Shown in pieces: positions 29 through 14,026 of a stretch of 20,307 bases of DNA. A model generated the notes under the pieces. It was not told where the DNA came from. It made no database searches and was given only the letters and a program-made list of their open reading frames with translations. Position 1 is the stretch's first letter. Each line of letters starts with the position of its first letter. Origin of the DNA: a virus; the IMG/VR virus record IMGVR_UViG_3300032164_003094; one strand, written 5' to 3'. The translations under genes and the position numbers were made by a program.

Positions 29-955
29 TCAGCTTGCGATGACGCCCGTCTGCGCAACCCTGGCGGCTATGCGGAGAAGGTCCAGCCCCTCTCGGCGGGA
101 GCTAAGATGTCTCTTCTTCGGATTGAAGACCATGCCCTCGGCGTCGAGCTGCTTCTTGACCTCGCCCTGAGCAATGGCCCGGCTCGCCGGGTCCCGGAAC
201 TGTGTGTTGACGAGCTTCTGAAGCTCCGCGGGACCGTACTCGTCCTCGTCCATCTCATCCATGTGCTTGACGAAGGCATCGACCGATCCGTAGATGGCTT
301 CGTCCGCCTCGCGCTGGGCCTGGGCGGCCTCCGCCTGCTCCGTCTCGCGCGCCTTCTCCGCCTGGTTCTGACGGGCCAACTCGTTGATCTCCGCCTGCTC
401 CTTCCGGAGCTGCGGGTCACGCGTGAGGGACTTCGCCTCCGGCGGATGGTTTTCGAGGACGTGATCGTTCAGCTGCTCCAGGGCGTCGACGAGGTCGACC
501 AGGTCCGCGGGGTCCTTGAGCTGCGGGCTCCCGTTCGCGTCGAACGAAATATCCACCTTGCCGGCCGGGGTCGGGAACATGTACTTACCCGCGCCCTTCA
601 TCTTCGGGGTCTTGAAGAAGAACCCTCCCTCCAGGTTCACCACCGTGGCCTTTCCGGCGATCTCCTTACCCGACCCCTGGACTGGCGGTATTAGCGTCCC
701 CTTGACGAGGAGCGTCCCGTTGAGGTTCGCCTTGTTGAAGTCATCGGGCCGAGCCGGGAAGGAAAAGGAGTCCTCCGACTGCCCCCGGACTCCCGAGGAT
801 AGGGCGTCGTAGCCGAAGTCGGGGTTCAGCTTGCCCAGGAGCGGCTGAATCGTCGTCTTGACGAGGTCGGAGATCGCCTTCGCCACTGCCGGGTTGGCTG
901 CGGCCGTCAGGTCCGCCTGGGAAACGAGAGTCTCCGCTATCCTCTTCAGGTCCAT
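29..955 (-). CDS. Hypothetical protein, 308 aa. The N-terminal half is Gly/Lys-rich (possibly beta-rich). The C-terminal half is acidic and Gln/Glu-rich, probably coiled coil. No motif recognised.
   Basis: Long ORF whose amino-acid composition looks like a real protein. ATG at 953-955 is preceded by AAGGGG. The plus-strand ORF 107-694 on the opposite strand is Leu/Arg-rich shadow. The next gene follows after a 23-nt gap. Confidence 0.55.
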   Translation of the reverse strand: MDLKRIAETLVSQADLTAAANPAVAKAISDLVKTTIQPLLGKLNPDFGYDALSSGVRGQSEDSFSFPARPDDFNKANLNGTLLVKGTLIPPVQGSGKEIAGKATVVNLEGGFFFKTPKMKGAGKYMFPTPAGKVDISFDANGSPQLKDPADLVDLVDALEQLNDHVLENHPPEAKSLTRDPQLRKEQAEINELARQNQAEKARETEQAEAAQAQREADEAIYGSVDAFVKHMDEMDEDEYGPAELQKLVNTQFRDPASRAIAQGEVKKQLDAEGMVFNPKKRHLSSRREGLDLLRIAARVAQTGVIAS

Positions 956-978
956 GACCTACCCCTTCGAGAAAAGCT

Positions 979-1413
979 CTACCGGACAGTCCCATCACTG
1001 TTCCCGCGGAGGACCGTGTAGAACGGCAGGCTATTGGCGTTGATCCGCTTCGCCGCCGCCTCGTCGTCCTGTTGGTCGGGAACCATCAGCTTCACCTCAC
1101 GGGCAAGCGATAAGAGCTTCGGGTCGTTCGTAATGCGCGCCAGATCCCTGGCCGCGTTTGGGTTGCGGAGGAGGACGTCGTACACCTGCTCGTACGTCAG
1201 CTCGTCCAAAATGCACCTCCCCGGAAAGCCGGGGGCCCGCAGCTGGAACCATATGTTGCACTCCGTGTCGCCCGTACACTTTGTGCAACAGTTCTTTTCG
1301 GGGTTCACGTCCTCCGACATGTCCTCAATGCTATGGCAGCCGCAGTCGCTCCCGTCGTCGATCGGCTGAGGGCACGGAGGGAGGCCAGGGTGCATCGGGT
1401 TGTGATCCGCCAT
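979..1413 (-). CDS. Cysteine-rich hypothetical protein (CPQP..CGCH..CCTKCTGDTEC motif cluster). Start taken at the internal ATG (MADHNPMHPG); the ORF track extends it to a TTG at 1440.
   Basis: Protein-like ORF with clustered Cys/His in the N-terminal third. It lies in the same orientation as gene 29-955, 23 nt upstream of it. The start codon is uncertain and no clear SD is present. Confidence 0.45.
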   Translation of the reverse strand: MADHNPMHPGLPPCPQPIDDGSDCGCHSIEDMSEDVNPEKNCCTKCTGDTECNIWFQLRAPGFPGRCILDELTYEQVYDVLLRNPNAARDLARITNDPKLLSLAREVKLMVPDQQDDEAAAKRINANSLPFYTVLRGNSDGTVR

Positions 1414-1478
1414 AACGGACCGTACGGAAAGGAAGCTCAAGGCCTATGGTGAAGCATCACTCTTGGTAACGTTTCACT

Positions 1479-2048
1479 ATGGTCATTGGAGATAGATACG
1501 GACGGCTTGAGGTACTCGGAATCCGACCGCATCGACTACCGGGAGGGAAATCAAGCCCCCGCGCTTCAGTCCGATGTGACTGTGGGAAAGAAAAGGAGGT
1601 CTTTTCCGTTTCCCTTGTTCAAGGGAAGACTCGTTCGTGCGGATGTGACAAGTCCTTTTACAGCAAGATGACGGGAGTAAACAGTTACAAGTTCTCGGGT
1701 CATATGGAGATCCGAGGGACTCTCTGGAGCAAGTACATGCTTCGAGCTTCGAAAAGAAACATCCCGTTCACGGTCCGAATCGAGGACGCATGGGAGCTTT
1801 TCGAGAAGCAAGAAAGGAAGTGCGTCCTTTCCGGGATCCCAATCTTGTTCGGAGGTTCCCATCCGCTATCTGACACGACAGCTTCTTTGGACCGGCTGGA
1901 CCCATCTCTCGGTTATATCATAGAGAATGTCCAATGGGTTCACAAGATCGTGAACATGATGCGCTGGACGCTGTCCGTGAACGAGTTTGTCAACTGGTGC
2001 TCGTTGGTCACTCAGAGGGCGGCACTGACGACGCAGTCAGCGCCGTGA
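1479..2048 (+). CDS. Phage-type HNH endonuclease-like protein. It has an N-terminal zinc finger (GRLEVLG..RCDCGKEKEV..G.T.SCGC) and a C-terminal HNH_3-like region (ASLDRLDPSLGYIIENVQWVHKIVNMMRW..EFVNWC).
   Basis: The motif layout (FGRL.V, C.C.CG, SCGC, then SLDR.D..GY...NVQWVH..N.MK) matches my memory of free-standing phage HNH endonucleases. The gene is markedly AT-richer (about 50% GC by eye) than its neighbours. Its 3' end overlaps the convergent nitrilase gene by about 37 nt. Confidence 0.6.
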   Translation: MVIGDRYGRLEVLGIRPHRLPGGKSSPRASVRCDCGKEKEVFSVSLVQGKTRSCGCDKSFYSKMTGVNSYKFSGHMEIRGTLWSKYMLRASKRNIPFTVRIEDAWELFEKQERKCVLSGIPILFGGSHPLSDTTASLDRLDPSLGYIIENVQWVHKIVNMMRWTLSVNEFVNWCSLVTQRAALTTQSAP

Positions 2049-2788
2049 ACCATGCCCCCCGTGTGGACTTTCCACTCGGGCGTAATGATGGCAGTCTTTC
2101 CGGTGCCGAACTTACTGACAAACTCGGTACCGGGAGCGTTCTCGTCACCCCATCGGTCCGCGACTGCGAGAATGCAGTGGTTGTCCGCCACGAAGTTCAT
2201 GAAAGTAACCGGGGGGTACCCACCACCGGACCCCCAGTTCGTCATGCCGGCGACGATATCTACCCGTTTACCCTTCCACAAAGGCTTTTCTTTGGCCGTA
2301 CGGGGAATGTTCTCCGGGATTTTGTCCCGAATATCTCTGCAGATGACCACGGACATCTTCCCAAGTTCAGTGTCAACTATCGGTGCCGGCTCTTCACCAG
2401 GAGTGGCCCACAGGTAGTCGCACGAGTATAGGTTGATTTTACGGTAAGAAGTCACCAGTTTTCCGTCCGGGCCGACCATCGAGCAGGAGTTGTGGAGCTT
2501 CCCGTCCGCGACCTCGACGTAGCCCCAGGCCACGTACGCCTTCAGCTCGACGGCCGCCCCTCTCATCGCCCGGAAGGTCGGCCCGTCGAACGCCTCGGAC
2601 ACCCTGGCGGCCTCATCGCGGCCCAGGAAGGAGTATCCGGTGAAGGCGAGCTCGGGAAAGACAATGAGCTGAGAGCCGAGGCGTCCTGCTTCATGGATGA
2701 GGTTCGCCGCCCGTCGGATGTTGTCCGACACGTCCGCCGGGCACGAGGCGAGTCGAGGCCGAAACTGAACGCATGAAAGAATGTTCAC
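2012..2788 (-). CDS. Carbon-nitrogen hydrolase (nitrilase superfamily) enzyme, 258 aa.
   Basis: Catalytic triad context is visible: FPELAF (Glu), YRKINLY (Lys), VVICRD (Cys). The length is typical. The GTG start overlaps the TGA stop of the upstream J-domain gene (GTGA). Confidence 0.85.
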   Translation of the reverse strand: MNILSCVQFRPRLASCPADVSDNIRRAANLIHEAGRLGSQLIVFPELAFTGYSFLGRDEAARVSEAFDGPTFRAMRGAAVELKAYVAWGYVEVADGKLHNSCSMVGPDGKLVTSYRKINLYSCDYLWATPGEEPAPIVDTELGKMSVVICRDIRDKIPENIPRTAKEKPLWKGKRVDIVAGMTNWGSGGGYPPVTFMNFVADNHCILAVADRWGDENAPGTEFVSKFGTGKTAIITPEWKVHTGGMVHGADCVVSAAL

Positions 2789-3111
2789 TTTAGCGGATCC
2801 ACGTCAATGAAGACCGAGCGCTTGCTCTCCCGGTCGGCCTCACGTTTCTCCTCGGCCTCCCGGAACTTCGACTTGAAGTCCTCAGTCCCCCTCTCGATCG
2901 CCTCAAACGCCTCGGAAACCCTCTTGAACTTCGAGGGGTCGCCACCCCGGTCCGGATGGTGTTTGACCTGAAGGGAGGTCCGGGTCTTCCTCGCCTCCTC
3001 GAGAAGGCCCTCCAGGAAGGGGACCATGTCCTGGCGCTTCCGGGCCTTTGCGTCGGCGAGGATGGACGGCAGGTCACGGCCGAAAAGGCGCCAAGCTTCG
3101 TACAGGTCCAT
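2785..3111 (-). CDS. Small J-domain co-chaperone-like protein, 108 aa, with an HPD motif.
   Basis: KHHPDRGGDPSKFKRVSEAFEAI is a canonical J-domain helix II-III with HPD. It is translationally coupled on both sides: TAATG with the upstream small ORF and GTGA with the downstream nitrilase. Confidence 0.75.
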   Translation of the reverse strand: MDLYEAWRLFGRDLPSILADAKARKRQDMVPFLEGLLEEARKTRTSLQVKHHPDRGGDPSKFKRVSEAFEAIERGTEDFKSKFREAEEKREADRESKRSVFIDVDPLK

Positions 3112-3278
3112 TACCCGAACAAGCCCTTCAAACTTCTAGCGCCCCTTTTCTTTGGCTTCGTGAGCCGCCGGTCGAGAAAGGCCTTCAGCTCGGCGATAGT
3201 GGCCATATCCCTGCCGTTCACCCGGTGGAACTCGGCCACCATCTTATCCAGCTTGGTCGAAAACTCGTCGTATGTCAT
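3111..3278 (-). CDS. Small hypothetical protein, 55 aa (MTYDEFSTKLDKMVAEFHRVNGRDMATIAELKAFLDRRLTKPKKRGARSLKGLFG). It is not in the supplied ORF track because it is under 60 aa.
   Basis: I translated the minus strand by hand. ATG at 3276-3278 and a TAA stop that overlaps the ATG of the J-domain gene (TAATG). It is the first gene of the small-ORF/J-domain/nitrilase operon. Confidence 0.35.
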   Translation of the reverse strand: MTYDEFSTKLDKMVAEFHRVNGRDMATIAELKAFLDRRLTKPKKRGARSLKGLFG

Positions 3279-3373
3279 CGACAATTCCGTAAATACGGTA
3301 CTCGGTTCGGTAAAATCAGCGTGTAAAGTCGTGAGTGACGACCAAGCTAATCTTTCAAGCTCTCTGGACTCGA

Positions 3374-3544
3374 ATGGTTTTCCTAGCCGAAGAGTTCGGG
3401 GACACCAGGCTCCGGGCGGTCCTCACAAACCACGAGGACCGCCGAGAGTATATCTGCCGGAAACTGGGCGTGGTTTCGGACGGGGACATTCATAGGATCA
3501 GGGCTGCCAGGCAGAACCGTGGTGAACGAGGGAGGACCCCGTGA
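3374..3544 (+). CDS. Small hypothetical protein, about 56 aa (MVFLAEEFGDTRLRAVLTNHEDRREYICRKLGVVSDGDIHRIRAARQNRGERGRTP).
   Basis: Short ORF sitting divergent from the minus-strand operon. The ORF track starts it at 3335, but the internal ATG at 3374 follows an AT-rich stretch. No motif recognised. Confidence 0.3.
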   Translation: MVFLAEEFGDTRLRAVLTNHEDRREYICRKLGVVSDGDIHRIRAARQNRGERGRTP

Positions 3545-3548
3545 GTAA

Positions 3549-3600
3549 TTGTGTGCAACTGCAAGAATTGGTAAAGTGGGCTTCAAAGGCTCCCGGAGGA
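3549..3600 (+). promoter_or_regulatory. Sigma-70-like promoter candidate, TTGTGT-N17-TAAAGT, followed by the SD GGAGGA (3595-3600) 4 nt before the ATG of the histone-like gene.
   Basis: -35-like TTGTGT at 3549-3554, a 17-nt spacer, and -10-like TAAAGT at 3572-3577, all inside an AT-rich island within otherwise GC-rich DNA. The SD GGAGGA is textbook. Confidence 0.35.
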
Positions 3601-3604
3601 TAAC

Positions 3605-4381
3605 ATGACGAAGAAGAAGACGAATACGGATACGAAGACCCAGCAGGCCCCCAAGCCGGCGAAGATCAAGACGAAAACCGAGGTCCGGAACGCGTCGGCC
3701 CAGGCCGACAAGCTCGTTCGCGGGATGGACAACAACTCCGTGTCGATCCAGAAGCACCAGCAGGAGATCGAGAAGAAGATCGCGGAAAACGCGAAGAGCG
3801 CCGTGACAGTGCGCTCTCTCATCGCCGGCATCTCGAACGTCGCCCTCACCGCCCAGCCCGCTCCCGCTCCCGCGAAGGCCAAGCCGGCCGCGAAGGCCAA
3901 GCCGGCCGCGAAGGCCAAGCCGGCCGCGAAGGCCAAACCGACCTCGGCGGCCAAGCCGGCCGCGAAGGCCAAGCCGGCCGCGAAGGCCAAGCCGGCCGCG
4001 AAGGCAGCGGCAAAGCCAGCGTCCAAGTCGGCTTCAGGCGGGGTGGAGTGGAGGACGAAACACAAGCTTGACATCGTCGCGCGAGACATCGTCGCGTCGG
4101 CCGACAAGCCCCTGACGGCCGCGGAAATCTACCACGGCTGCGAGGCTTACGCCAAGAAGCACGCCTTCAAAGACGAATACGGCGACGACGACTGCTGGAG
4201 CCGCCAGTCGCTCTACAACCAGCTCAAGATCGTCGCCCGCTTCACCAAGTCCGGCGACGGGGCGACGGCGACCTACCAGAACGCTGCCTCGAAGGCTGCC
4301 TCGAAGGCTGCCACGGACCAGGACGCCGACGAGTACGTCAAGAAGGTCGAGAAGAATCAGACCGTCGCGAACGTGAGCTAA
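3605..4381 (+). CDS. Histone H1-like / AlgP-like basic DNA-binding protein with (AKPAAK)n repeats, 258 aa.
   Basis: N-terminus is Lys/Thr-rich. The central section carries 7-8 copies of AKPAAKAKP, characteristic of bacterial H1-like proteins (AlgP/Hc1 type). The C-terminal 110 aa look globular. A strong SD precedes the gene and a hairpin terminator follows it. Confidence 0.8.
   Translation: MTKKKTNTDTKTQQAPKPAKIKTKTEVRNASAQADKLVRGMDNNSVSIQKHQQEIEKKIAENAKSAVTVRSLIAGISNVALTAQPAPAPAKAKPAAKAKPAAKAKPAAKAKPTSAAKPAAKAKPAAKAKPAAKAAAKPASKSASGGVEWRTKHKLDIVARDIVASADKPLTAAEIYHGCEAYAKKHAFKDEYGDDDCWSRQSLYNQLKIVARFTKSGDGATATYQNAASKAASKAATDQDADEYVKKVEKNQTVANVS
3874..4005 (+). repeat. 18-bp tandem repeat (gccaagccggccgcgaag, about 6-7 copies with one interrupted copy) encoding AKPAAK.
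   Basis: Near-perfect DNA-level tandem repeat directly visible in the sequence. It is a candidate for repeat-number variation. Confidence 0.8.
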
Positions 4382-5357: not shown

Positions 5358-5590
5358 ACTGTGACTATTGCGGAGAGAAGACGGAGAGGACGGTCGAGGC
5401 GGTCGAGGAGAACGTTCCCGTCTGCCATCGGTGCGCGATCTTGCTCTCGAGCCCGATGACGGGCTCGAGGCTGATCCGAGGCCATATGAACCTGCGGCTT
5501 AGGGAGAAGATGGGGAAACGGCAGCTCGACCTTCTGTTCGAGAAGGCGATGCCCATCTTAGAGTCGATGAAGAGGAAGGACGCTTCCTAG
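5354..5590 (+). CDS. Small zinc-ribbon-like protein, 78 aa (CDYC...CHRC).
   Basis: Two CxxC pairs spaced about 20 aa apart. ATGA start/stop overlap with the upstream gene. Its stop shares a CTAG tetranucleotide with the stop of the convergent sigma factor gene. Confidence 0.5.
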   Translation: MNCDYCGEKTERTVEAVEENVPVCHRCAILLSSPMTGSRLIRGHMNLRLREKMGKRQLDLLFEKAMPILESMKRKDAS

Positions 5591-6276
5591 CTCGCCGCGG
5601 CGAGCATCCGCACTGCGGCCGGAATCCGCTGCTTGATGTCGCGGATGGTCTTCGTGGTGACCTTTCGATCACCGAACGAGAGGGACTCGCGCACGACCTC
5701 GGCGCTCGCGCCGGATCGGACCGCCCGGACATACCGTGCCAAATCCCACTCGCCTTTCATCCGCAGGGCGTGCTCGAAGGACTCCAGCTTTTCGGTGAAC
5801 GCGTCCGGCTCAACCCGCGCGTTCACGTCCTCGACTGTGTCGAGGAGCGAACGGCCGTCGTCCGGGCCCACGGGCGCGTCGATGGAGTCTTTTTCCCGGT
5901 CATACCGGCGCTTCTTGTGGACGAGGTTGACGCACACGTTGTTGGCCACCATGTAGACGTAGTGGCCGAACGAGCTCTTGTTCGGATTGTGCGCGGACCG
6001 CGTGCAGTTTTTGTGGATGATCGCGACGAAGACCTCCTGGATGAGCTCCTCCATCGAGTACCCCTCCACTCGGAAGAACTTGTGTACGATCTTCGTGACG
6101 TCGAGCTTTTTCTCGATGACGTCGATGCCGAGGGGTACGGACGCTACGGCCTTTCCGTTCTCATCCACTTCCGCCTTTGAAAACCTGGGCCAAGGTAGCT
6201 TGTCGGGGATCCTCTTCAAAGGCTTCCCGGGGACTCTGATGATCTTGGCCTGTTGGGCCAGCTTTCCGATTTCCAT
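5587..6276 (-). CDS. Sigma-70 family (ECF-like) RNA polymerase sigma factor, about 229 aa.
   Basis: Region 2-like segment: EELIQEVFVAIIHK...FGHYVYMVANNVCVNLVHKKRRY. Region 4-like HTH: DLARYVRAVRSGASAEVVRESLSFGDRKVTTKTIRDIKQRI. ATG at 6274-6276 preceded by GGAGAG at 6283-6288; the track starts it 2 codons earlier at a GTG. Confidence 0.7.
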   Translation of the reverse strand: MEIGKLAQQAKIIRVPGKPLKRIPDKLPWPRFSKAEVDENGKAVASVPLGIDVIEKKLDVTKIVHKFFRVEGYSMEELIQEVFVAIIHKNCTRSAHNPNKSSFGHYVYMVANNVCVNLVHKKRRYDREKDSIDAPVGPDDGRSLLDTVEDVNARVEPDAFTEKLESFEHALRMKGEWDLARYVRAVRSGASAEVVRESLSFGDRKVTTKTIRDIKQRIPAAVRMLAAAS

Positions 6277-6312
6277 TGCCACCTCTCCAATTAGACTGTC
6301 GACGCCCGCGCG

Positions 6313-6344
6313 TGCAGTATATCCCCCCTAGAGGATATACTGCA
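6313..6344. promoter_or_regulatory. Perfect 12-bp inverted repeat TGCAGTATATCC-N8-GGATATACTGCA in the divergent intergenic region between the sigma factor gene and gene 6396-7016. Candidate operator and back-to-back -10 elements (TATACT on both strands).
   Basis: Directly visible palindrome. TATACT is 5/6 of the -10 consensus and appears in both orientations, roughly 40-55 nt upstream of the two divergent starts. Confidence 0.5.
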
Positions 6345-6395
6345 GTTTAGCACACAGAGGACGATTGGTGCAAGCAATCTCGAACGTAATGTTTT

Positions 6396-7016
6396 ATGGA
6401 GCTTCAGATGTCCCAGGACTTTCTTCGAGAGTGCATGTCCGACCCGGCGCTGGTTCAGGGCCAAGTGCCCATAGACGAGTTCAACAAGGCGTATTGCGTC
6501 AGGTGCGTCCAAAAGGAGTGCGCCAGGGCCGGACTGAACGGGTCCCTGCTCTCCAGACGCGCGGCGACCTGGCATACAAACCTGTTCGAAAAGCCTCCCC
6601 GGGCGGCAGAGGACGATCCGCGCTATCAGTCCATACGGGCAAAGAAGTTCCTCCAGACCTCAAGTGAGGTCGTGGAGCTCCGGAACAACGGGGTGAACTA
6701 CGAAGTGCAGACCAGGGAGATGCCAGAGGCCCTCCGGAAAACCCCGCCGGAGCCGCCGGCCTTTGATCCGCCACCCCCGGCCCCCGTCTGGGCGGAGCCC
6801 GCTCCGCCCGTTCCGGAGCCTGTTGAAGCAGTCCCGGCGCCCGTCCTTGACGTTCCGCCGGTCCCAGAGCCAGCGCCCGTCGCACCACCAGCCCGCCAGT
6901 TTGACGCACCGCCCCAAAACACCCCCTTCGAGCAGGGGACGGTTCTCCCGGGCGGCCCCAGCGAGAAAACGGTAGAAGTAGGAGGCTCCTATGTCTTCGG
7001 ATCTGACGAACAGTAA
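6396..7016 (+). CDS. Hypothetical protein, 206 aa. The N-terminus has Cys pairs (CVRCVQKEC). The C-terminal half is extremely Pro-rich with PxP/PAPV repeats.
   Basis: Long ORF divergent from the sigma factor gene. The Pro-rich tail is PPEPPAFDPPPPAPVWAEPAPPVPEPVEAVPAPVLDVPPVPEPAPVAPP. The start could also be the ATG at 6408. Confidence 0.5.
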   Translation: MELQMSQDFLRECMSDPALVQGQVPIDEFNKAYCVRCVQKECARAGLNGSLLSRRAATWHTNLFEKPPRAAEDDPRYQSIRAKKFLQTSSEVVELRNNGVNYEVQTREMPEALRKTPPEPPAFDPPPPAPVWAEPAPPVPEPVEAVPAPVLDVPPVPEPAPVAPPARQFDAPPQNTPFEQGTVLPGGPSEKTVEVGGSYVFGSDEQ

Positions 7017-8712: not shown

Positions 8713-8967
8713 TCACGGGCAGCCCACCGGAGGGTGCATCGCGGCGTTCAGCTCCGGCTCGACCTCCTGCCAATTCTCCACGTCCGTAAGGGCCTCACCC
8801 CACGTGGGGCTCATGGGAGAGAATACCCCGCACTTGCACTCCAGCCAGCACGATCCCCTCCCGCCGAGCGCCAGTAGCCCAGGCTCGAGGCAAGCCGGAC
8901 AAGGGTGCCTGGCGGCGGTGAAGGCCCTCCGGATCTCCCGGTCCTTCAACATTTCCTCGCGCGTCAT
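8713..8967 (-). CDS. Small Cys-rich protein, about 84 aa (CPAC...CWLECKC).
   Basis: Its ATG at 8965-8967 overlaps the TGA stop of the dCTP deaminase gene (ATGA). It has two Cys clusters. Confidence 0.4.
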   Translation of the reverse strand: MTREEMLKDREIRRAFTAARHPCPACLEPGLLALGGRGSCWLECKCGVFSPMSPTWGEALTDVENWQEVEPELNAAMHPPVGCP

Positions 8968-9659
8968 TGAAACATCTTCCACGACTGTGACGGGATTGGG
9001 CCCATCGCGAGATCGCCCTTATAACTACCCTTGGACTGGTAGCTGTCGACCTCTCCGACGAGCGTGTGGAATCGCATCTGGCAGAACCTCATACCCGGGT
9101 AGACGATGAGCGGGTGCAGAACCGCCACCTCGAGCGTGTACTGGCCGTCGAACCCCGGGTCGCCATATCCGGCCGTAACGTGGACGAAGCAGAAGAGACG
9201 GCCTATTGAGGACTTCCCGTCTATGATGGGGACGAATTTGTCCGTCGCCACGCGCTCCTCAGTGTGCATCAGGTAGCCGATCCCGGGCAGGAGAACGAGG
9301 CCCCGGTCGTCCATCTCGTACCTGGCCACCCGGTTCTCCCTGGCGGAGTCAAGACAGTTCTGGCCGGCCTTCGCCGCTATCTTCTCGCCGGGGGCATATT
9401 TCGGGCGGAGCCTCTCCCCCGGGACGCCGAAGGAGCCGTCGTCCCGCATCCCGTCGCACTCCCAGTCATCATCGCTCCCGGCCTGGACGAGAGCCCTATA
9501 TACGGCGACGTGGCGTCCGAGCGTCAGGTCGTACGAGGCCGGGTTGATCCGGTCCTCGAACCTGGGGTCGCCGGACTCGAACGGGTCTATCCTGATCGTC
9601 CCATCGCGGATGGCGTCGCGAATCTGCTTGCCGGAAAGAATGCCGCCGTTTGGTCCCAT
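8964..9659 (-). CDS. dcd: dCTP deaminase, about 232 aa, with a C-terminal extension of about 40 aa relative to typical enzymes.
   Basis: ILSGKQIRDAIRDGTIRIDPF ... NPASYDLTLG ... GYGDPGFDGQYTLEV are the dCTP deaminase / dUTPase-fold signature motifs. Start taken at ATG 9657-9659 (MGPNGGILSG), not the upstream track start at 9839. Confidence 0.8.
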   Translation of the reverse strand: MGPNGGILSGKQIRDAIRDGTIRIDPFESGDPRFEDRINPASYDLTLGRHVAVYRALVQAGSDDDWECDGMRDDGSFGVPGERLRPKYAPGEKIAAKAGQNCLDSARENRVARYEMDDRGLVLLPGIGYLMHTEERVATDKFVPIIDGKSSIGRLFCFVHVTAGYGDPGFDGQYTLEVAVLHPLIVYPGMRFCQMRFHTLVGEVDSYQSKGSYKGDLAMGPIPSQSWKMFQ

Positions 9660-9683
9660 TAAAGTCTCCAGGTATGATTTTAC

Positions 9684-9968
9684 ATGCCGATGACTGAAGA
9701 AGAAAAGCGGGAGGCCCTCGTCATCGCCGAGTCCATCGGCCCCGTGCAGATCTTCGAGACCCTCCAAGACCTCATCGCCAGGGAAAGGAGCCTTCTGGAG
9801 ACCCCTATGGACCGGGACATGCGGGCCATAACGCTGCACAACCTCGCCGTCCTGACCGCCGCCTGCGCAGGGTATGAGGAGGCGGCGAAAAAGTTCAACG
9901 AGGCTTTATCCAAGGCCAAACAGGCCCGCGATGACGGGGAAGGAACGGGAGTCGACGAGGATCCCTGA
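9684..9968 (+). CDS. Small hypothetical helical protein, 94 aa, with one TPR-like motif.
   Basis: Divergent from the dCTP deaminase gene with only about 24 nt between the starts. Its 3' end overlaps the convergent polymerase gene by about 63 nt. AITLHNLAVLTAACAGYEEAAKKFNEALSKAKQ looks TPR-like. Confidence 0.4.
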   Translation: MPMTEEEKREALVIAESIGPVQIFETLQDLIARERSLLETPMDRDMRAITLHNLAVLTAACAGYEEAAKKFNEALSKAKQARDDGEGTGVDEDP

Positions 9969-12902
9969 CTCCTCGGATATGATGACGTTCCCCTTCGAGT
10001 CGACGACGCGCAGTATGTCGACCCCCTCCGTCAGCACGCACACGGCGTGAAGCTTCTTCTGGTTCCGCTTGGTCATCGGGGACCTCAGCACCCAGCGGAC
10101 GACCTCCCTGTCGCCCGACGGGACTTCCCGCTTCTCCGGCCTGGCCTGGACGCTAGACTTCGGCTCCGAAGAGCCAAATCCGGGGTCCATGGAGTCGGAT
10201 AGGTCAATCTCAACGGGGGCCGGGGCCGGGATTGCCGGCTCGGACGTACCGTTCGCCTCCTTCGACACAGGGAGGGGGACGTCGAAGTCGTCCATTGAAA
10301 AGTCGTTCACTCCGGCTGTTCTCGGTGGCGGCGGTGGCGGCTCTTCCTCCTTCGGCGCCGCTGGCTTCTCTGCTTCGACCCTTGCGGACTCTGGGGTATC
10401 CGTCCTCTCCTCCGCGTTCATGTCAACCGGCCGTCCGACGATCTCAACAGGGTCGGCCCCGGATCCCGTCGTATGAACACGGTCCACCATGGTCTCGACG
10501 ACAACGTCTTTCGCCGGCTCGGTCGGCACCACCTCCTCGGACCTCTCCGGCTTCGGTTCAGACGTCACGGGAACCCTCCGTATCCATTGTTCGAGGAACT
10601 CAGGGACCTTCTGGTATATACGTCCATCCGCGAAGTATTGGTCCTTCTTCAGCTTACCCTTGAACGTGCCGTCCTCGGCGGTATCCTTCGGATTGACGGG
10701 AGCCCCGTCCACCATCGCGAAGTAGTCGAAGCGAGCCTTCCAGTTACAGTCGACCCCAGGCTCCGTGAGCAGTGGGACATCCCACGCGCGGCCGTGGGCC
10801 TTCTGCAGCCTCCAAGGCTCGGTCATCCACTCGTCGAGCTTACGGACGATCTCCATGAGGAACTCTGGCTTGATCTCATAGACGACCTCGTCGTGCACCG
10901 TCAGGACGTAGCGGCACCGGTCCTTCCACCCGAGCGTCCGGAGCTGCTTGTCGACGTAGCACATCGCAAACTTCAGGACGTCGGCCGAAGTCGCCTGAAT
11001 CGTGTAGTTGATCGCGCAGCGTTCGGCCTTCGACCGGATGCCGCGAATCGGAGAGTCGATCGTCGGGATGGGGATCCGACGGCCGAACGCTGTGTAGATG
11101 CACTTATGCTTATGGGCGTACTTCTTTTGGAACTCAACATACCCCATGAGGATGGGAACGTCGTTCCGGAGGTTCTCCATGTGCTTGGAGGCTTCCTCAA
11201 TGGAACAGCCGACGTTCCTCTGGATGGCGCCCGCGCCGCCGCCGTAGATGAACGCGAAGTTGCATCGCTTACCACGGTTACGCTCGTCCTTGTTAATGTC
11301 CTTCTTACCGAAGAGCGTGCGGGCCGTGATGCTATGAACGTCCCCGTCCTCGTAAAGGAATGACTTCGTCCAGATCGGGTCCCCGGAAAGGTTGGTGACG
11401 ACGCGCAGCTCCTCGCCTGCATAGTCGAGCTTCACGAGCATCCACCCCTTCCGCGGGATTATGCAGGTTCGAAGCTGCTTGAATAGGTCCGGCTTATCCT
11501 CGTCCGAATCGCGAGGTATGCCCTGGAAGTTGATTCCGGAATACCCGTCCGCGATCTTTCCAGCCTTCGACGAGAGGCGCGTCGTGTCAGTGCCTATCTG
11601 GCTAAAGTTCGGCCGGACGTCCCCATATTTGTCGACCGCCTTCGACAGCGGGTTCAGGTACGAACCCAACATCTTCTGGTAATGGCGCCATTCCAGGATG
11701 AGTTCGAAGATGCTCTCGCGCTTCAGGCTCCCGTCCTTGTCGGTGATGCCCTCTCGCACAACGGAGAACTTCGCGCCGTACACCTTATGAAGGGACTTCA
11801 GGGCCTCATCCTTGAGGCTATACTGCTTGTCATCCACCGACCCGTCCTCTTCCTCCTCCGAGTCCCCGCCCCCGCCACCACCCTCCTGACCCTCGTTCTC
11901 CGCCGCGAGCATCTCGGCCGTCGGCTTCAGGCGCAGTCCTTCCGAGTCCGTGATGAGGGCCTCGGAAAGCTGCTGGACGGCGCCAATGTTCAACGTAATC
12001 CAACGGCCCGTCTTGCCTGTCTTCCCCTCTATCACCTCGCGGATTGAGTCCCCGACCTTGTGCATCTCGGACGTGCACTCGGTCCGCAAGTGTTCCACAC
12101 GGTCCACGTCCACGTGGACGCGGTTTCGCTCAAGCTCGCGGATGACGTTGCAGAACGACTTTTCCAGATCGTAGATCCTCTGGTCGGAGTCGGAGAGTTT
12201 GGGGTGCAGGACCTCCCTCAGCTTGTACGTGAAGATGCCGTCGGAACAGCCATACGCAAGGCCCTCCTTCGGGTGCAGGACAGCAAAGTTGTACCCCTGC
12301 TTATCCCGCTTCATCTGCTCCATCTTCTCGGGCGTAAAGAGGTCCGAGAGCTCGAGCATCTCCACGTTGAAGTGAATCTTGGAAAGCTGCTTCAGGCCGT
12401 TCGGCATCTGCTTCAGCGGTGAGATGACCTTCGACATGAGGTATGTGTCCTCATACTCGGCGAGTTTCCAGTGGTCTTTCCCGGTGACGGGATAGAGGAA
12501 CTCGCAGTCGAACTTGGCTCCGTGGAACACGACCCTGCAGCCGTTCACAAGGCGGGTGATCTCCTCCCACGCCTCATCCCATGGCAGGTTCCCGGAGTCC
12601 TCCGGATAGTGTCCGACGGGGACGTAGTAGCCGTTATATCCGTCGAACGAGATGCAGAGCCCGGCGACCTTGTCGACCGTCCTCATGCCATGGCGAGTTT
12701 TCTTTCCATCCCCGAAGAACTCGTCCTGGTAGACGCGGTTGTCGAGCCCGGTGGTCTCCAGGTCCAGAGAGCATGTCTTGCGTTGGAGGCAAAGGTCAAC
12801 AAGCTTCTTAAGCCGGTCCACGGAGGTGACGAGGTGGAACTTGTACCCCTGCATCCACTCACGCTGAGTGTCCACCTTGTCGTCCATCTGCTGCAGAAGC
12901 AT
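9906..12902 (-). CDS. Family A (Pol I-like) DNA polymerase, 998 aa. It has an N-terminal 3'-5' proofreading exonuclease and no 5'-3' nuclease domain. An acidic/Gly insert is present, and there is a C-terminal low-complexity extension of about 260 aa.
   Basis: Exo I LDLETTGLD, Exo II HGAKFDCEF, Exo III YGCSDGIFTYKL. Pol motif A LDYAGEELRVV, motif B RNRGKRCNFAFIYGGG, motif C TVHDEVVYE. Confidence 0.9.
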   Translation of the reverse strand: MLLQQMDDKVDTQREWMQGYKFHLVTSVDRLKKLVDLCLQRKTCSLDLETTGLDNRVYQDEFFGDGKKTRHGMRTVDKVAGLCISFDGYNGYYVPVGHYPEDSGNLPWDEAWEEITRLVNGCRVVFHGAKFDCEFLYPVTGKDHWKLAEYEDTYLMSKVISPLKQMPNGLKQLSKIHFNVEMLELSDLFTPEKMEQMKRDKQGYNFAVLHPKEGLAYGCSDGIFTYKLREVLHPKLSDSDQRIYDLEKSFCNVIRELERNRVHVDVDRVEHLRTECTSEMHKVGDSIREVIEGKTGKTGRWITLNIGAVQQLSEALITDSEGLRLKPTAEMLAAENEGQEGGGGGGDSEEEEDGSVDDKQYSLKDEALKSLHKVYGAKFSVVREGITDKDGSLKRESIFELILEWRHYQKMLGSYLNPLSKAVDKYGDVRPNFSQIGTDTTRLSSKAGKIADGYSGINFQGIPRDSDEDKPDLFKQLRTCIIPRKGWMLVKLDYAGEELRVVTNLSGDPIWTKSFLYEDGDVHSITARTLFGKKDINKDERNRGKRCNFAFIYGGGAGAIQRNVGCSIEEASKHMENLRNDVPILMGYVEFQKKYAHKHKCIYTAFGRRIPIPTIDSPIRGIRSKAERCAINYTIQATSADVLKFAMCYVDKQLRTLGWKDRCRYVLTVHDEVVYEIKPEFLMEIVRKLDEWMTEPWRLQKAHGRAWDVPLLTEPGVDCNWKARFDYFAMVDGAPVNPKDTAEDGTFKGKLKKDQYFADGRIYQKVPEFLEQWIRRVPVTSEPKPERSEEVVPTEPAKDVVVETMVDRVHTTGSGADPVEIVGRPVDMNAEERTDTPESARVEAEKPAAPKEEEPPPPPPRTAGVNDFSMDDFDVPLPVSKEANGTSEPAIPAPAPVEIDLSDSMDPGFGSSEPKSSVQARPEKREVPSGDREVVRWVLRSPMTKRNQKKLHAVCVLTEGVDILRVVDSKGNVIISEESGILVDSRSFPVIAGLFGLG

Positions 12903-12916
12903 GGCGAGACCTTACA

Positions 12917-14026
12917 GTGGGTGTACCGTGTAGGACCAGGGAAGCCAAATTGAGCCAGGACCATTACGCTATCTTGGGACTGCCGAGGACGGCGTCCCAA
13001 GAGGACATCAAGAAGGCCTTCCGCAGGCTCGCGGTCGAGCACCATCCGGACAAGGGCGGAAACGCCTCCAGGTTCAAGGAGGTCAACACGGCCCACCAGG
13101 TCCTGACCGACGAGGGAAAGAAAGCGCGATTCGACGCTTATGGGGACGAGAACGCACAGCATCCGCCCCGTCCACCCCCGAGGCGGCCCGGGAACTTCCG
13201 TGTAACGATGGACGACCTGAACTCGGTCTTCAACAACCATTTTGACCCGTTCGGCCCGTTCCACGGCGGGGGAGTCGCGGACTTCGCCAAGAAAGCACGT
13301 CCCGTCCAAGACCCCGGCGACGACATCAGGATCAAGGTCTCCGTTCCGATGGAGGAAGCCTTGGTCGGGACGAAGAAGACGGTCCGATTTGACCGCGGGG
13401 ATGCACAGCTTTGCAGAAAGTGCGCAGGATCCGGGTCTCAGAACGGCAGGCCGCAGGGGATCTGCCTGACGTGCGACGGGAGTGGGAGGACCATAGACAT
13501 GGTGGCCGGCCATCCGGCCGTCCGACAGTGTCGACAATGCCGTGGGTCCGGGAGCTCGAGCGCGGACAGGTGCCAGGACTGCTCCGGGTCGGGAAAGGAG
13601 GCCGTGCAGAGGGAGATCACGGTCACCATCCCGAAAGGACTGCGCAGCGGGCAGGACATGAAGGTCAAAGGGCTCGGCAGGCCGGGGGCACCGCCGGGGG
13701 ACCTGATTTTGACCGTCGAAATCCGGGACTCCGAAAATTGGTGGGCTCGAGGAGAGTCTCTCTTCACAACGGTCGAGGTGGGGATGACGGACCTTCTCCA
13801 CGGCGGAAGCACGACGACGCGCATGCCGGACGGCCGGGAAGTCTCGGTGACCGTCCCCGCCGGGGGAGGCCGGGCGACCGCCCAGGGGGCGTGGAAGAAC
13901 CCCGCAGGGCAGGACGGAGACCTGACGGTCTTGTTCAAGGTGAGGCCGGCCAGGGGGTTCAGCCCGCGCGCGGAGCGCCTGATGCGAGAGCTTCTTGAAG
14001 AGCTTGGGGGTCGGGAACGACAATGA
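12917..14026 (+). CDS. dnaJ: Type I DnaJ (Hsp40) co-chaperone: J domain, linker, four CxxCxGxG zinc-finger repeats, then C-terminal substrate-binding domains.
   Basis: DHYAILGL...HHPDKGG...FKEVNTAHQVL (J domain). CRKCAGSG, CLTCDGSG, CRQCRGSG, CQDCSGSG. Start is GTG 12917, or alternatively TTG 12950 preceded by AGGGAAG. The long minus-strand ORFs over this gene are Arg/Pro/Gly-rich shadows. Confidence 0.85.
   Translation: MGVPCRTREAKLSQDHYAILGLPRTASQEDIKKAFRRLAVEHHPDKGGNASRFKEVNTAHQVLTDEGKKARFDAYGDENAQHPPRPPPRRPGNFRVTMDDLNSVFNNHFDPFGPFHGGGVADFAKKARPVQDPGDDIRIKVSVPMEEALVGTKKTVRFDRGDAQLCRKCAGSGSQNGRPQGICLTCDGSGRTIDMVAGHPAVRQCRQCRGSGSSSADRCQDCSGSGKEAVQREITVTIPKGLRSGQDMKVKGLGRPGAPPGDLILTVEIRDSENWWARGESLFTTVEVGMTDLLHGGSTTTRMPDGREVSVTVPAGGGRATAQGAWKNPAGQDGDLTVLFKVRPARGFSPRAERLMRELLEELGGRERQ

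Follow-up and report, generated by a model that had tools for sequence, protein, structure and literature searches.

The window analyzed here is a stretch of 20,307 nucleotides (nt) from the IMG/VR record IMGVR_UViG_3300032164_003094, and coordinates given without a locus name are positions in it. It contains a minus-strand cassette in which a short open reading frame (ORF), a gene for a J-domain protein and a gene for a nitrilase-superfamily carbon-nitrogen (CN) hydrolase follow one another. An earlier note, made from these letters alone, had described the three as a coupled operon and had assigned the second to a J protein with an intact His-Pro-Asp (HPD) motif and the third to the nitrilase superfamily; positions, strand and both identities were confirmed. 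Judged by the gene order in relatives, the real unit is four genes, comprising these three and a Cys-rich protein of ~144 amino acids (aa). The proteins that constantly accompany the J protein are the 55-aa protein and the Cys-rich protein, the latter of which lay outside the earlier description. The features of the locus are as follows.

3111-3278, minus strand: tiny ORF, 55 aa, first gene of the cassette
2785-3111, minus strand: J protein, 108 aa, second gene of the cassette
2012-2788, minus strand: CN hydrolase, 258 aa, GTG start, third gene of the cassette
1479-2048, plus strand: HNH-type homing endonuclease gene, inserted, outside the module
979-1413, minus strand: Cys-rich "downstream" protein, ~144 aa, fourth gene of the cassette

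The first three genes are tightly joined. The TAA stop codon of the tiny ORF (3113-3111) shares 1 nt with the ATG start codon of the J gene (3111-3109) to give TAATG, and the GTG start codon of the hydrolase gene (2788-2786) lies over the TGA stop codon of the J gene (2787-2785) to give the 4-nt overlap GTGA. Three overlapping start/stop junctions had been claimed; TAATG and GTGA were found as described, but three genes have only two junctions, and the third overlap is that between the hydrolase gene and the HNH gene. In the gene table of the same phage, overlaps of -4 or -1 nt are the norm and the 4-nt overlap is the usual junction, so an overlap as such is unremarkable here. The overlaps reflect dense packing and imply translational coupling at most, and do not bear out the stoichiometric production of the three proteins that had been deduced from them. 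A promoter and terminator scan of positions 800-3700 revealed nothing above the shuffled expectation.

Using our own hidden Markov models (HMMs), we found the order tiny ORF, J gene, hydrolase gene and fourth gene in every hydrolase-bearing locus of the near clade, in which the hydrolases were 47-67% identical. These loci are L001, L003, L005, L007-L010, L012-L014 and L140, while L002, L004, L006 and L011 are the same phages in duplicate. Twelve distinct lineages with a hydrolase carried the four-gene cassette, the lowest hydrolase identity among them being 47%. The spacing in relatives ranged from -4 to +16 nt between the tiny ORF and the J gene, from -4 to +26 nt between the J gene and the hydrolase gene, and from -4 to +9 nt between the hydrolase gene and the fourth gene where no insert was present. 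The J-plus-hydrolase pair to which the earlier note had drawn attention is thus conserved in relatives. The same note had held that an isolated nitrilase gene would be left if the tiny ORF and the J domain lacked conservation in homologues; the tiny ORF, the J protein and the hydrolase were all conserved in relatives, and this objection therefore fails.

The J module and the hydrolase were nevertheless separable in both directions, as evident from their distribution. The tiny ORF, the J gene and the fourth gene were adjacent without a hydrolase gene in five distinct lineages (L141, L142/L143, L144, L145 and L148), with 14-27 nt between the J stop codon and the start of the fourth gene. Neither tblastn nor the family HMM revealed a hydrolase in these loci, and none of the ~100 hydrolase homologues lay on the 322,391-bp contig of L145. 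Identity to the window's J protein was 56-64% for those of L141, L142 and L144, compared with 45% for that of the hydrolase-bearing L001 and 37% for that of L003; because the hydrolase-less J proteins are the closer ones, the absence of the hydrolase is a nested loss. Conversely, 42 IMG/VR loci of a far clade (~33 distinct sequences, some being the same phage repeated) encoded an orthologous hydrolase of ~35% identity, and within 5 kb of it neither a tiny ORF nor a J gene was present in any of the 42. The far- and near-clade hydrolases had 38 positions in common with a conservation of 95% or more, among them those of the CRD, NR(W/Y)GxE and FGxGG motifs. Co-occurrence of the J protein and the hydrolase was therefore obligate in neither direction, and on this distribution the pairing is real as synteny and is not an obligate functional system. 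The invariant core, always found together, is the tiny ORF, the J gene and the fourth gene.

The HPD motif of the J protein was read from the sequence as His52-Pro53-Asp54 (nt 2950-2958) and was invariant in all 15 members of the family. A profile built from these 15 sequences matched 45 PDB chains, all of them DnaJ/Hsp40 or other J-domain proteins, with E. coli DnaJ as the best match (E-value of 6e-8). When the J family was aligned by hhalign with the window's own DnaJ (12917-14026), helix II, the HPD motif and helix III were matched with a probability of 96% and an E-value of 3.5e-9, and some family members carry precomputed matches to Pfam DnaJ (PF00226). The AlphaFold2 (AF2) model, with a predicted local distance difference test (pLDDT) score of 85, revealed helices at residues 3-9, 14-23 and 26-50 (helix II), the HPD loop and a long helix at residues 59-101 (helix III), followed by a short hydrophobic C-terminal tail, SVFIDV; the pLDDT of the KRSVFIDV segment was low. 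From the family profile matches, the invariant HPD motif and the AF2 model, the J protein is predicted to be a minimal Tim14-like, J-only (type III) J-domain protein. The earlier note had called it a second J protein, and the window indeed encodes a full-length type I DnaJ (12917-14026, plus strand) with a J domain, a CXXCXGXG zinc finger and a C-terminal domain. The 446-aa ORF that runs antisense across this DnaJ gene (12683-14023) is probably spurious.

The tiny ORF starts at the ATG at 3278; in the mechanical ORF list it begins slightly further upstream, with a TTG at 3284. Its product (MTYDEF...RSLKGLFG) is a basic, helical protein whose C-terminus bears a conserved [GA](L/R)KSLKGL motif, and Phe6, Ser49, Leu50 and Gly52 were invariant in an alignment of 12 sequences. 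The ORF was exactly 55 codons long in most relatives and preceded the J gene at all loci that have one. In comparison with relatives at 48-75% DNA identity, changes were over-represented at third codon positions, and roughly half of the changed codons were synonymous. On this conservation pattern the tiny ORF is a real gene. Searches of Pfam, PHROG, NCBIfam and PDB found no relative of its product. A Pfam KMP11 match (E-value of 0.004) was rejected as a chance match, as were PDB matches to designed repeat proteins and PfEMP1.

The mechanical ORF of the fourth gene runs to a TTG at 1440. In relatives the fourth protein has 115-195 aa; its N-terminus is rich in Cys and varies, while its C-terminal domain is conserved (C.LDELT...DL.RIT.DP...LPFYT..GN.DG). 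It had 30 unnamed homologues and no match in Pfam, PHROG or PDB, and an IMG/VR scan with a narrower alignment of the fourth protein returned eight loci. Assignment to a DnaJ-type zinc finger was considered and rejected, as the CxxCxG-like motif was not conserved and only one Cys was invariant.

In the window, the third and fourth genes are separated by the HNH gene, which is convergent with the hydrolase gene and overlaps its 3' end by 37 nt. It matched the endonuclease/HNH families of PHROG with E-values of 1e-19 to 6e-9, and its G+C content was 50-52%, compared with 60-63% in the flanks. Judged from these matches and its composition, the HNH homing endonuclease gene is an insertion between genes three and four and not part of the module. 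The junction of the hydrolase gene and the fourth gene appears to be an insertion hot spot. At this junction, L007 carries an antisense NinI-like Ser/Thr phosphatase gene (5771-6802, minus strand; PHROG 246, E-value of 2e-34), and L009 carries an unrelated 135-aa ORF. Additionally, far-clade ORFs that cluster with the HNH gene or with a NUMOD3-bearing ORF of L001 adjoin the hydrolase gene, for example, in L015, L020, L035, L036 and L054.

The hydrolase scored 88 bits against Pfam CN_hydrolase (PF00795; cut-off of 23.2). Its catalytic residues are Glu46 (codon 2651-2653), Lys117 (2438-2440) and Cys150 (2339-2341), which were invariant in all 44 hydrolase sequences and also in a 42-sequence alignment. 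A second catalytic Glu, expected 7-8 residues past the Lys, was absent; where the Pyrococcus enzymes and yeast Nta1 have this Glu in the alignment, the family has Asp124, also invariant in 44 of 44 sequences. As a conservative replacement that is compatible with activity, Asp124 does not exclude catalysis. The AlphaFold model (pLDDT of 92.6) revealed an alpha-beta-beta-alpha sandwich, and the family carries the motifs CRD(I/L)RDK, NWGxGG(F/Y)P, NR(W/Y)GxE and FGxGG. The GTG start is backed by the conservation of residues 1-19 in homologues, in which Gln8 and Pro11 were invariant. Public gene calls for the same phage (L057 10381-11100; L059 1257-1976) begin 19 codons too late; with 239 aa, they leave out the first beta-strand, which is conserved, as well as the overlap at GTGA. 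With its own invariant motifs, the hydrolase is, by these comparisons, a subfamily specific to huge phages, and it is predicted to be a catalytically competent thiol amidase.

The subtypes that had been proposed for it, namely an omega-amidase, an NAD-synthetase-type amidase or an Lnt-type N-acyltransferase, all scored far below their curated cut-offs. None of the NCBIfam equivalogs (archaeal nitrilase, AguB, formamidase, NAD synthase, Lnt and deaminated-glutathione amidase) was reached; the scores were 73.7 versus 500 bits for nitrile_Arch, 49.8 versus 410 for AguB and 22.2 versus 132.9 for Lnt. In a PDB profile search, the Pyrococcus enzymes ranked first (E-value of 4e-29) and yeast Nta1 second (E-value of 6e-22). 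The Nta1 match was limited to hydrolase residues 4-128, in which FPELAFTGYSF and LYNSA were closely Nta1-like. A profile search of the full library returned 138 representatives at an E-value of 1e-30 or lower, and beyond the phage family most of these were bacterial tandem CN-hydrolase proteins of 540-640 aa with generic names only. Some bacterial tandem relatives had 800-1070 aa and carried Big_5 or DUF4300 domains, and one generic-named relative came from an Anaerolineales metagenome-assembled genome (MAG).

The hydrolase of the far clade stands in a different neighbourhood. A ClpX homologue with a ClpX zinc finger, AAA_2 and ClpB D2-small domains lay 0-2.5 kb downstream of the hydrolase gene on the same strand in 30 of the 42 loci (for example, L018 4998-7021 and L035 4962-8245). 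In half of these loci (15 of 30), a protein of 315-430 aa with an invariant HELGH motif and weak matches to zincin-like peptidase families was encoded in between. An IMG/VR scan for ClpX found none on near-clade contigs among 80 of more than 528 matches. In some far-clade loci a fourth-gene homologue was located a few kb further downstream, which suggests that the near-clade arrangement arose from an ancestral gene order. Upstream, the far clade carried genes for thymidylate synthase, dihydrofolate reductase (DHFR) and a 5'-nucleotidase (NT5C), together with a gene, c1, for which PDB and Pfam gave no identity. The same phage as the window continues beyond the left edge of the window in L057 (13396-20025), where a MazG-like protein, a YfbR-like HD 5'-nucleotidase, a Peptidase_C15 protein, an S-adenosylmethionine (AdoMet) decarboxylase and a ferritin are encoded. 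Almost every relative has the HD nucleotidase gene conserved close to the cassette, and roughly half of them the Peptidase_C15 gene. As neighbours of both proteostasis and nucleotide-metabolism kinds are present, guilt by association is ambiguous as to the substrate.

We favor, with moderate confidence, the reading that the locus is a conserved huge-phage operon of four genes holding two separable functions, a J core that targets DnaK and an independent, dispensable amidase. Helix II and the HPD loop of the J protein would dock on host DnaK in its ATP state and trigger ATP hydrolysis, and DnaK would then clamp a partner presented by the J module. Candidate partners are the RSLKGLFG tail of the tiny protein, the KRSVFIDV tail of the J protein itself and the fourth protein. 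Host Hsp70 might thereby be redirected or sequestered early in infection, as it is by the J protein Rki of phage RB43. The hydrolase would be co-expressed with the J module, neither needing it nor being needed by it. By the mechanism of its superfamily, Cys150 would act as the nucleophile, Glu46 as the base and Lys117 as the stabilizer of the oxyanion, with a thioester intermediate formed on Cys150 and ammonia released from an amide. A small amide is favored as substrate, since the nearest structural relative of the hydrolase binds glutaramide; because of the Nta1-like motifs and the chaperone and protease neighbours, a peptide substrate is still possible.

Several points weigh against this reading. 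The window's J protein alone scored 17.3 bits against Pfam DnaJ, below the cut-off of 27.8, and its model lacked the canonical helix IV and matched DnaJ weakly in Foldseek (E-value of 0.85). Any contact of the J protein with DnaK, the tiny protein or the fourth protein is putative, and the two structure predictions covered monomers. The tight coupling of the J and hydrolase genes in 12 lineages could reflect a facultative functional link. Finally, the hydrolase-less loci lie on partial contigs of 20-63 kb that might carry a hydrolase elsewhere, L145 alone being long (322 kb).

Among the alternatives, we consider it unlikely that the hydrolase is a proteostasis-linked amidase acting on proteins or peptides, for example, on N-terminal Asn or Gln as Nta1 does, and preparing targets for its chaperone and protease neighbours. 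The downstream ClpX gene of the far clade, with the HELGH gene in between in half of those loci, is consistent with such a role, as is the pyroglutamyl peptidase (Peptidase_C15) encoded ~4 kb away in the window's phage. However, the similarity to Nta1 stops at residue 128, the phage enzyme is a bare catalytic domain of 258 aa compared with the 457 aa of Nta1, and genes for thymidylate synthase, DHFR, NT5C, dCTP deaminase, MazG and HD proteins occupy the same neighbourhoods. In addition, the cellular proteins nearest to it are tandem CN hydrolases with generic names, and ClpX is not the bacterial reader of N-degrons. A version in which the hydrolase would feed a phage-controlled proteostasis system as an N-terminal Asn/Gln or side-chain deamidase, through DnaK and the J protein here and through ClpX and the zincin-like peptidase in the sister clade, is very unlikely in our judgment. 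We know of no N-terminal amidase described for the bacterial degradation pathway; if true, the proposal would supply the missing "tertiary destabilizing residue" step of that pathway.

The earlier note had taken the mini J protein to be dedicated to the hydrolase, and a dedicated co-chaperone might recruit host DnaK for the folding or assembly of the enzyme or for client delivery. The J gene does lie directly upstream of the hydrolase gene, overlapping it or nearly so, down to the most divergent of the 12 lineages, and enzymes of the nitrilase superfamily are obligate oligomers. Dedication is contradicted by the five lineages that keep the J gene without the hydrolase and by the 42 far-clade loci that keep the hydrolase without the J gene; moreover, the phage has a full-length DnaJ that would serve generic folding and the overlapping junctions are the default of the genome. 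We therefore give this explanation little probability.

Comparably doubtful is a role as an auxiliary metabolic enzyme unrelated to the operon neighbours, such as an N-carbamoylputrescine amidase or a ureidopropionase-like enzyme. AguB was the second-best NCBIfam model (E-value of 2.9e-13), two relatives are called "N-carbamoylputrescine amidase" by the Joint Genome Institute (JGI), the AdoMet decarboxylase gene is ~7 kb away, and nucleotide-metabolism genes flank both clades. Against this, the AguB score was far short of the equivalog cut-off, ~20 kb of context revealed neither an agmatine deiminase nor an arginine decarboxylase, and the hydrolase has its own invariant motifs with Asp in place of the second Glu. 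That the tiny ORF or the J assignment is due to chance, leaving the nitrilase gene isolated, is vanishingly improbable: the J protein as a single sequence fell below the Pfam cut-off and the tiny ORF belongs to no family in the databases, but the length, position and sequence of both were conserved in 17 distinct lineages, the substitutions in the tiny ORF follow a coding pattern, and the J-domain matches were strong at the profile level.

The source of the window is, by all sequence comparisons, an uncultivated lineage of huge phages. Megablast of the whole window against GenBank phages gave no match, and neither did tblastn of the hydrolase and the J protein against 50,697 GenBank phage records; with no match to DNA or protein, there is no cultured relative. 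An identical J protein was present on a 75-kb ENA contig, and the ~100 hydrolase homologues, at 45-91% identity, were in many cases located on contigs of 200-440 kb. An IMG/VR scan with the hydrolase alignment yielded 50 viral loci, mostly on contigs of 100-530 kb, and one with the single hydrolase protein as the query confirmed no locus. Other genes of the window encode a family A DNA polymerase, a dCTP-deaminase-like protein, a sigma-like factor, the full-length DnaJ and a major-vault-protein-like protein. In the literature on huge or jumbo phages we found no paper connecting them with nitrilase or CN hydrolases. That large phages can carry chaperone genes has a precedent in the "Moraphages" with DnaJ and DnaK (PMC12619734), which may be of another lineage than the window.

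Several further genes were noted. Divergently transcribed at 3605-4381 (plus strand) is a gene for a 258-aa protein with an Ala/Lys/Pro-rich (AKPAAK)n repeat, encoded at 3870-4005 by an 18-bp tandem unit in 7.6 copies with 91% matches. The product resembles a basic protein of the histone-H1 or AlgP type, and homologues of 192-258 aa (cluster c19) occupy the same position in relatives. Three genes were syntenic with the cassette in relatives: those for a putative metal-chelating CxxCxxCC protein (PF03692; 4749-5357, plus strand), a sigma-70 region 2-like factor (5587-6282, minus strand) and the dCTP-deaminase-like protein (8964-9839, minus strand). If its GTG start is right, the last of these has an N-terminal extension of ~150 residues; public calls give 231 aa. 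The vault-protein-like gene (16808-19486, minus strand; 892 aa), unusual for a phage, matched the major-vault-protein shoulder (PF11978, E-value of 2.6e-29), the Vault_3 repeat and SPFH/Band 7. Among relatives, L003 encodes a 557-aa ORF (927-2600, minus strand) with a weak match to a Cas12f1-like TNB domain (TnpB/Cas12-like) ~3 kb from the cassette, and the 430-kb relative L005 carries a RecA-like gene with an intein (12216-12762, minus strand; Intein_splicing and RecA_N).

The J protein and the hydrolase are of known kinds and belong to families without a cultured or characterized representative. To our knowledge, phage-encoded J proteins are rare and Rki alone has been characterized. The present proteins define a second phage J family, unrelated to Rki, of 108-aa Tim14-like proteins with 55-aa and Cys-rich partners, found in uncultivated phages of 100-440 kb that also encode a full DnaJ. 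The core of tiny ORF, J gene and fourth gene may be a compact system by which large phages rewire host Hsp70. The amidase subfamily, with more than 100 members, has an Asp in its catalytic tetrad and is encoded next to genes for chaperones or proteases in two clades. The core and the amidase are best treated as separate questions.

To place the two proteins among known systems, we compared them with their closest counterparts. Rki (gene 057w of the T4-like phage RB43) is a type III J protein that binds DnaK and stabilizes sigma-32 and is not a generic co-chaperone; its 237 aa comprise a canonical four-helix J domain and a 160-aa C-terminal domain (PMC3486835). Like Rki, the window's protein is a phage-encoded J protein without glycine/phenylalanine (G/F) or zinc-finger regions, it lies in a small operon with genes of unassigned function, and it presumably acts on host DnaK and not as a generic co-chaperone; Rki is an early gene of its small operon. 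In contrast to Rki, the window's protein lacks a C-terminal domain, its 108 aa hold a Tim14/Tim16-like J core together with additional helices at the N-terminus, and its partners are separate genes. There was no homology beyond the J domain, and tblastn against the 50,697 GenBank phage records gave no match. Relative to Tim14 (Pam18/DNAJC19) and Tim16, the phage J protein has a 40-residue extension of helix III and an intact HPD motif, which Tim16 lacks. Tim14 and Tim16 (PDB 2guz) are membrane-anchored subunits of the eukaryotic import motor, whereas the phage J protein is soluble.

The Pyrococcus PH0642 and P. abyssi amidases (PDB 6ypa, 1j31 and 3ivz) have a second catalytic Glu where the phage hydrolase has Asp124, and the phage enzyme has its own loop after the Cys (RDKIPxNIPR, low pLDDT) and distinct C-terminal motifs. 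Yeast Nta1 (branch 3 of the nitrilase superfamily; PDB 5hyy and 5b62) has 457 aa with large insertions; the phage hydrolase aligns with its N-terminal half only and shares neither full-length similarity nor architecture with it. The closest cellular relatives, at ~200 bits, were tandem bacterial "nitrilase-related carbon-nitrogen hydrolase" proteins (for example, HZD55953.1 from an Anaerolineales MAG), which contain two CN_hydrolase domains in 540-640 aa, while the phage enzyme is a single-domain protein of 258 aa.

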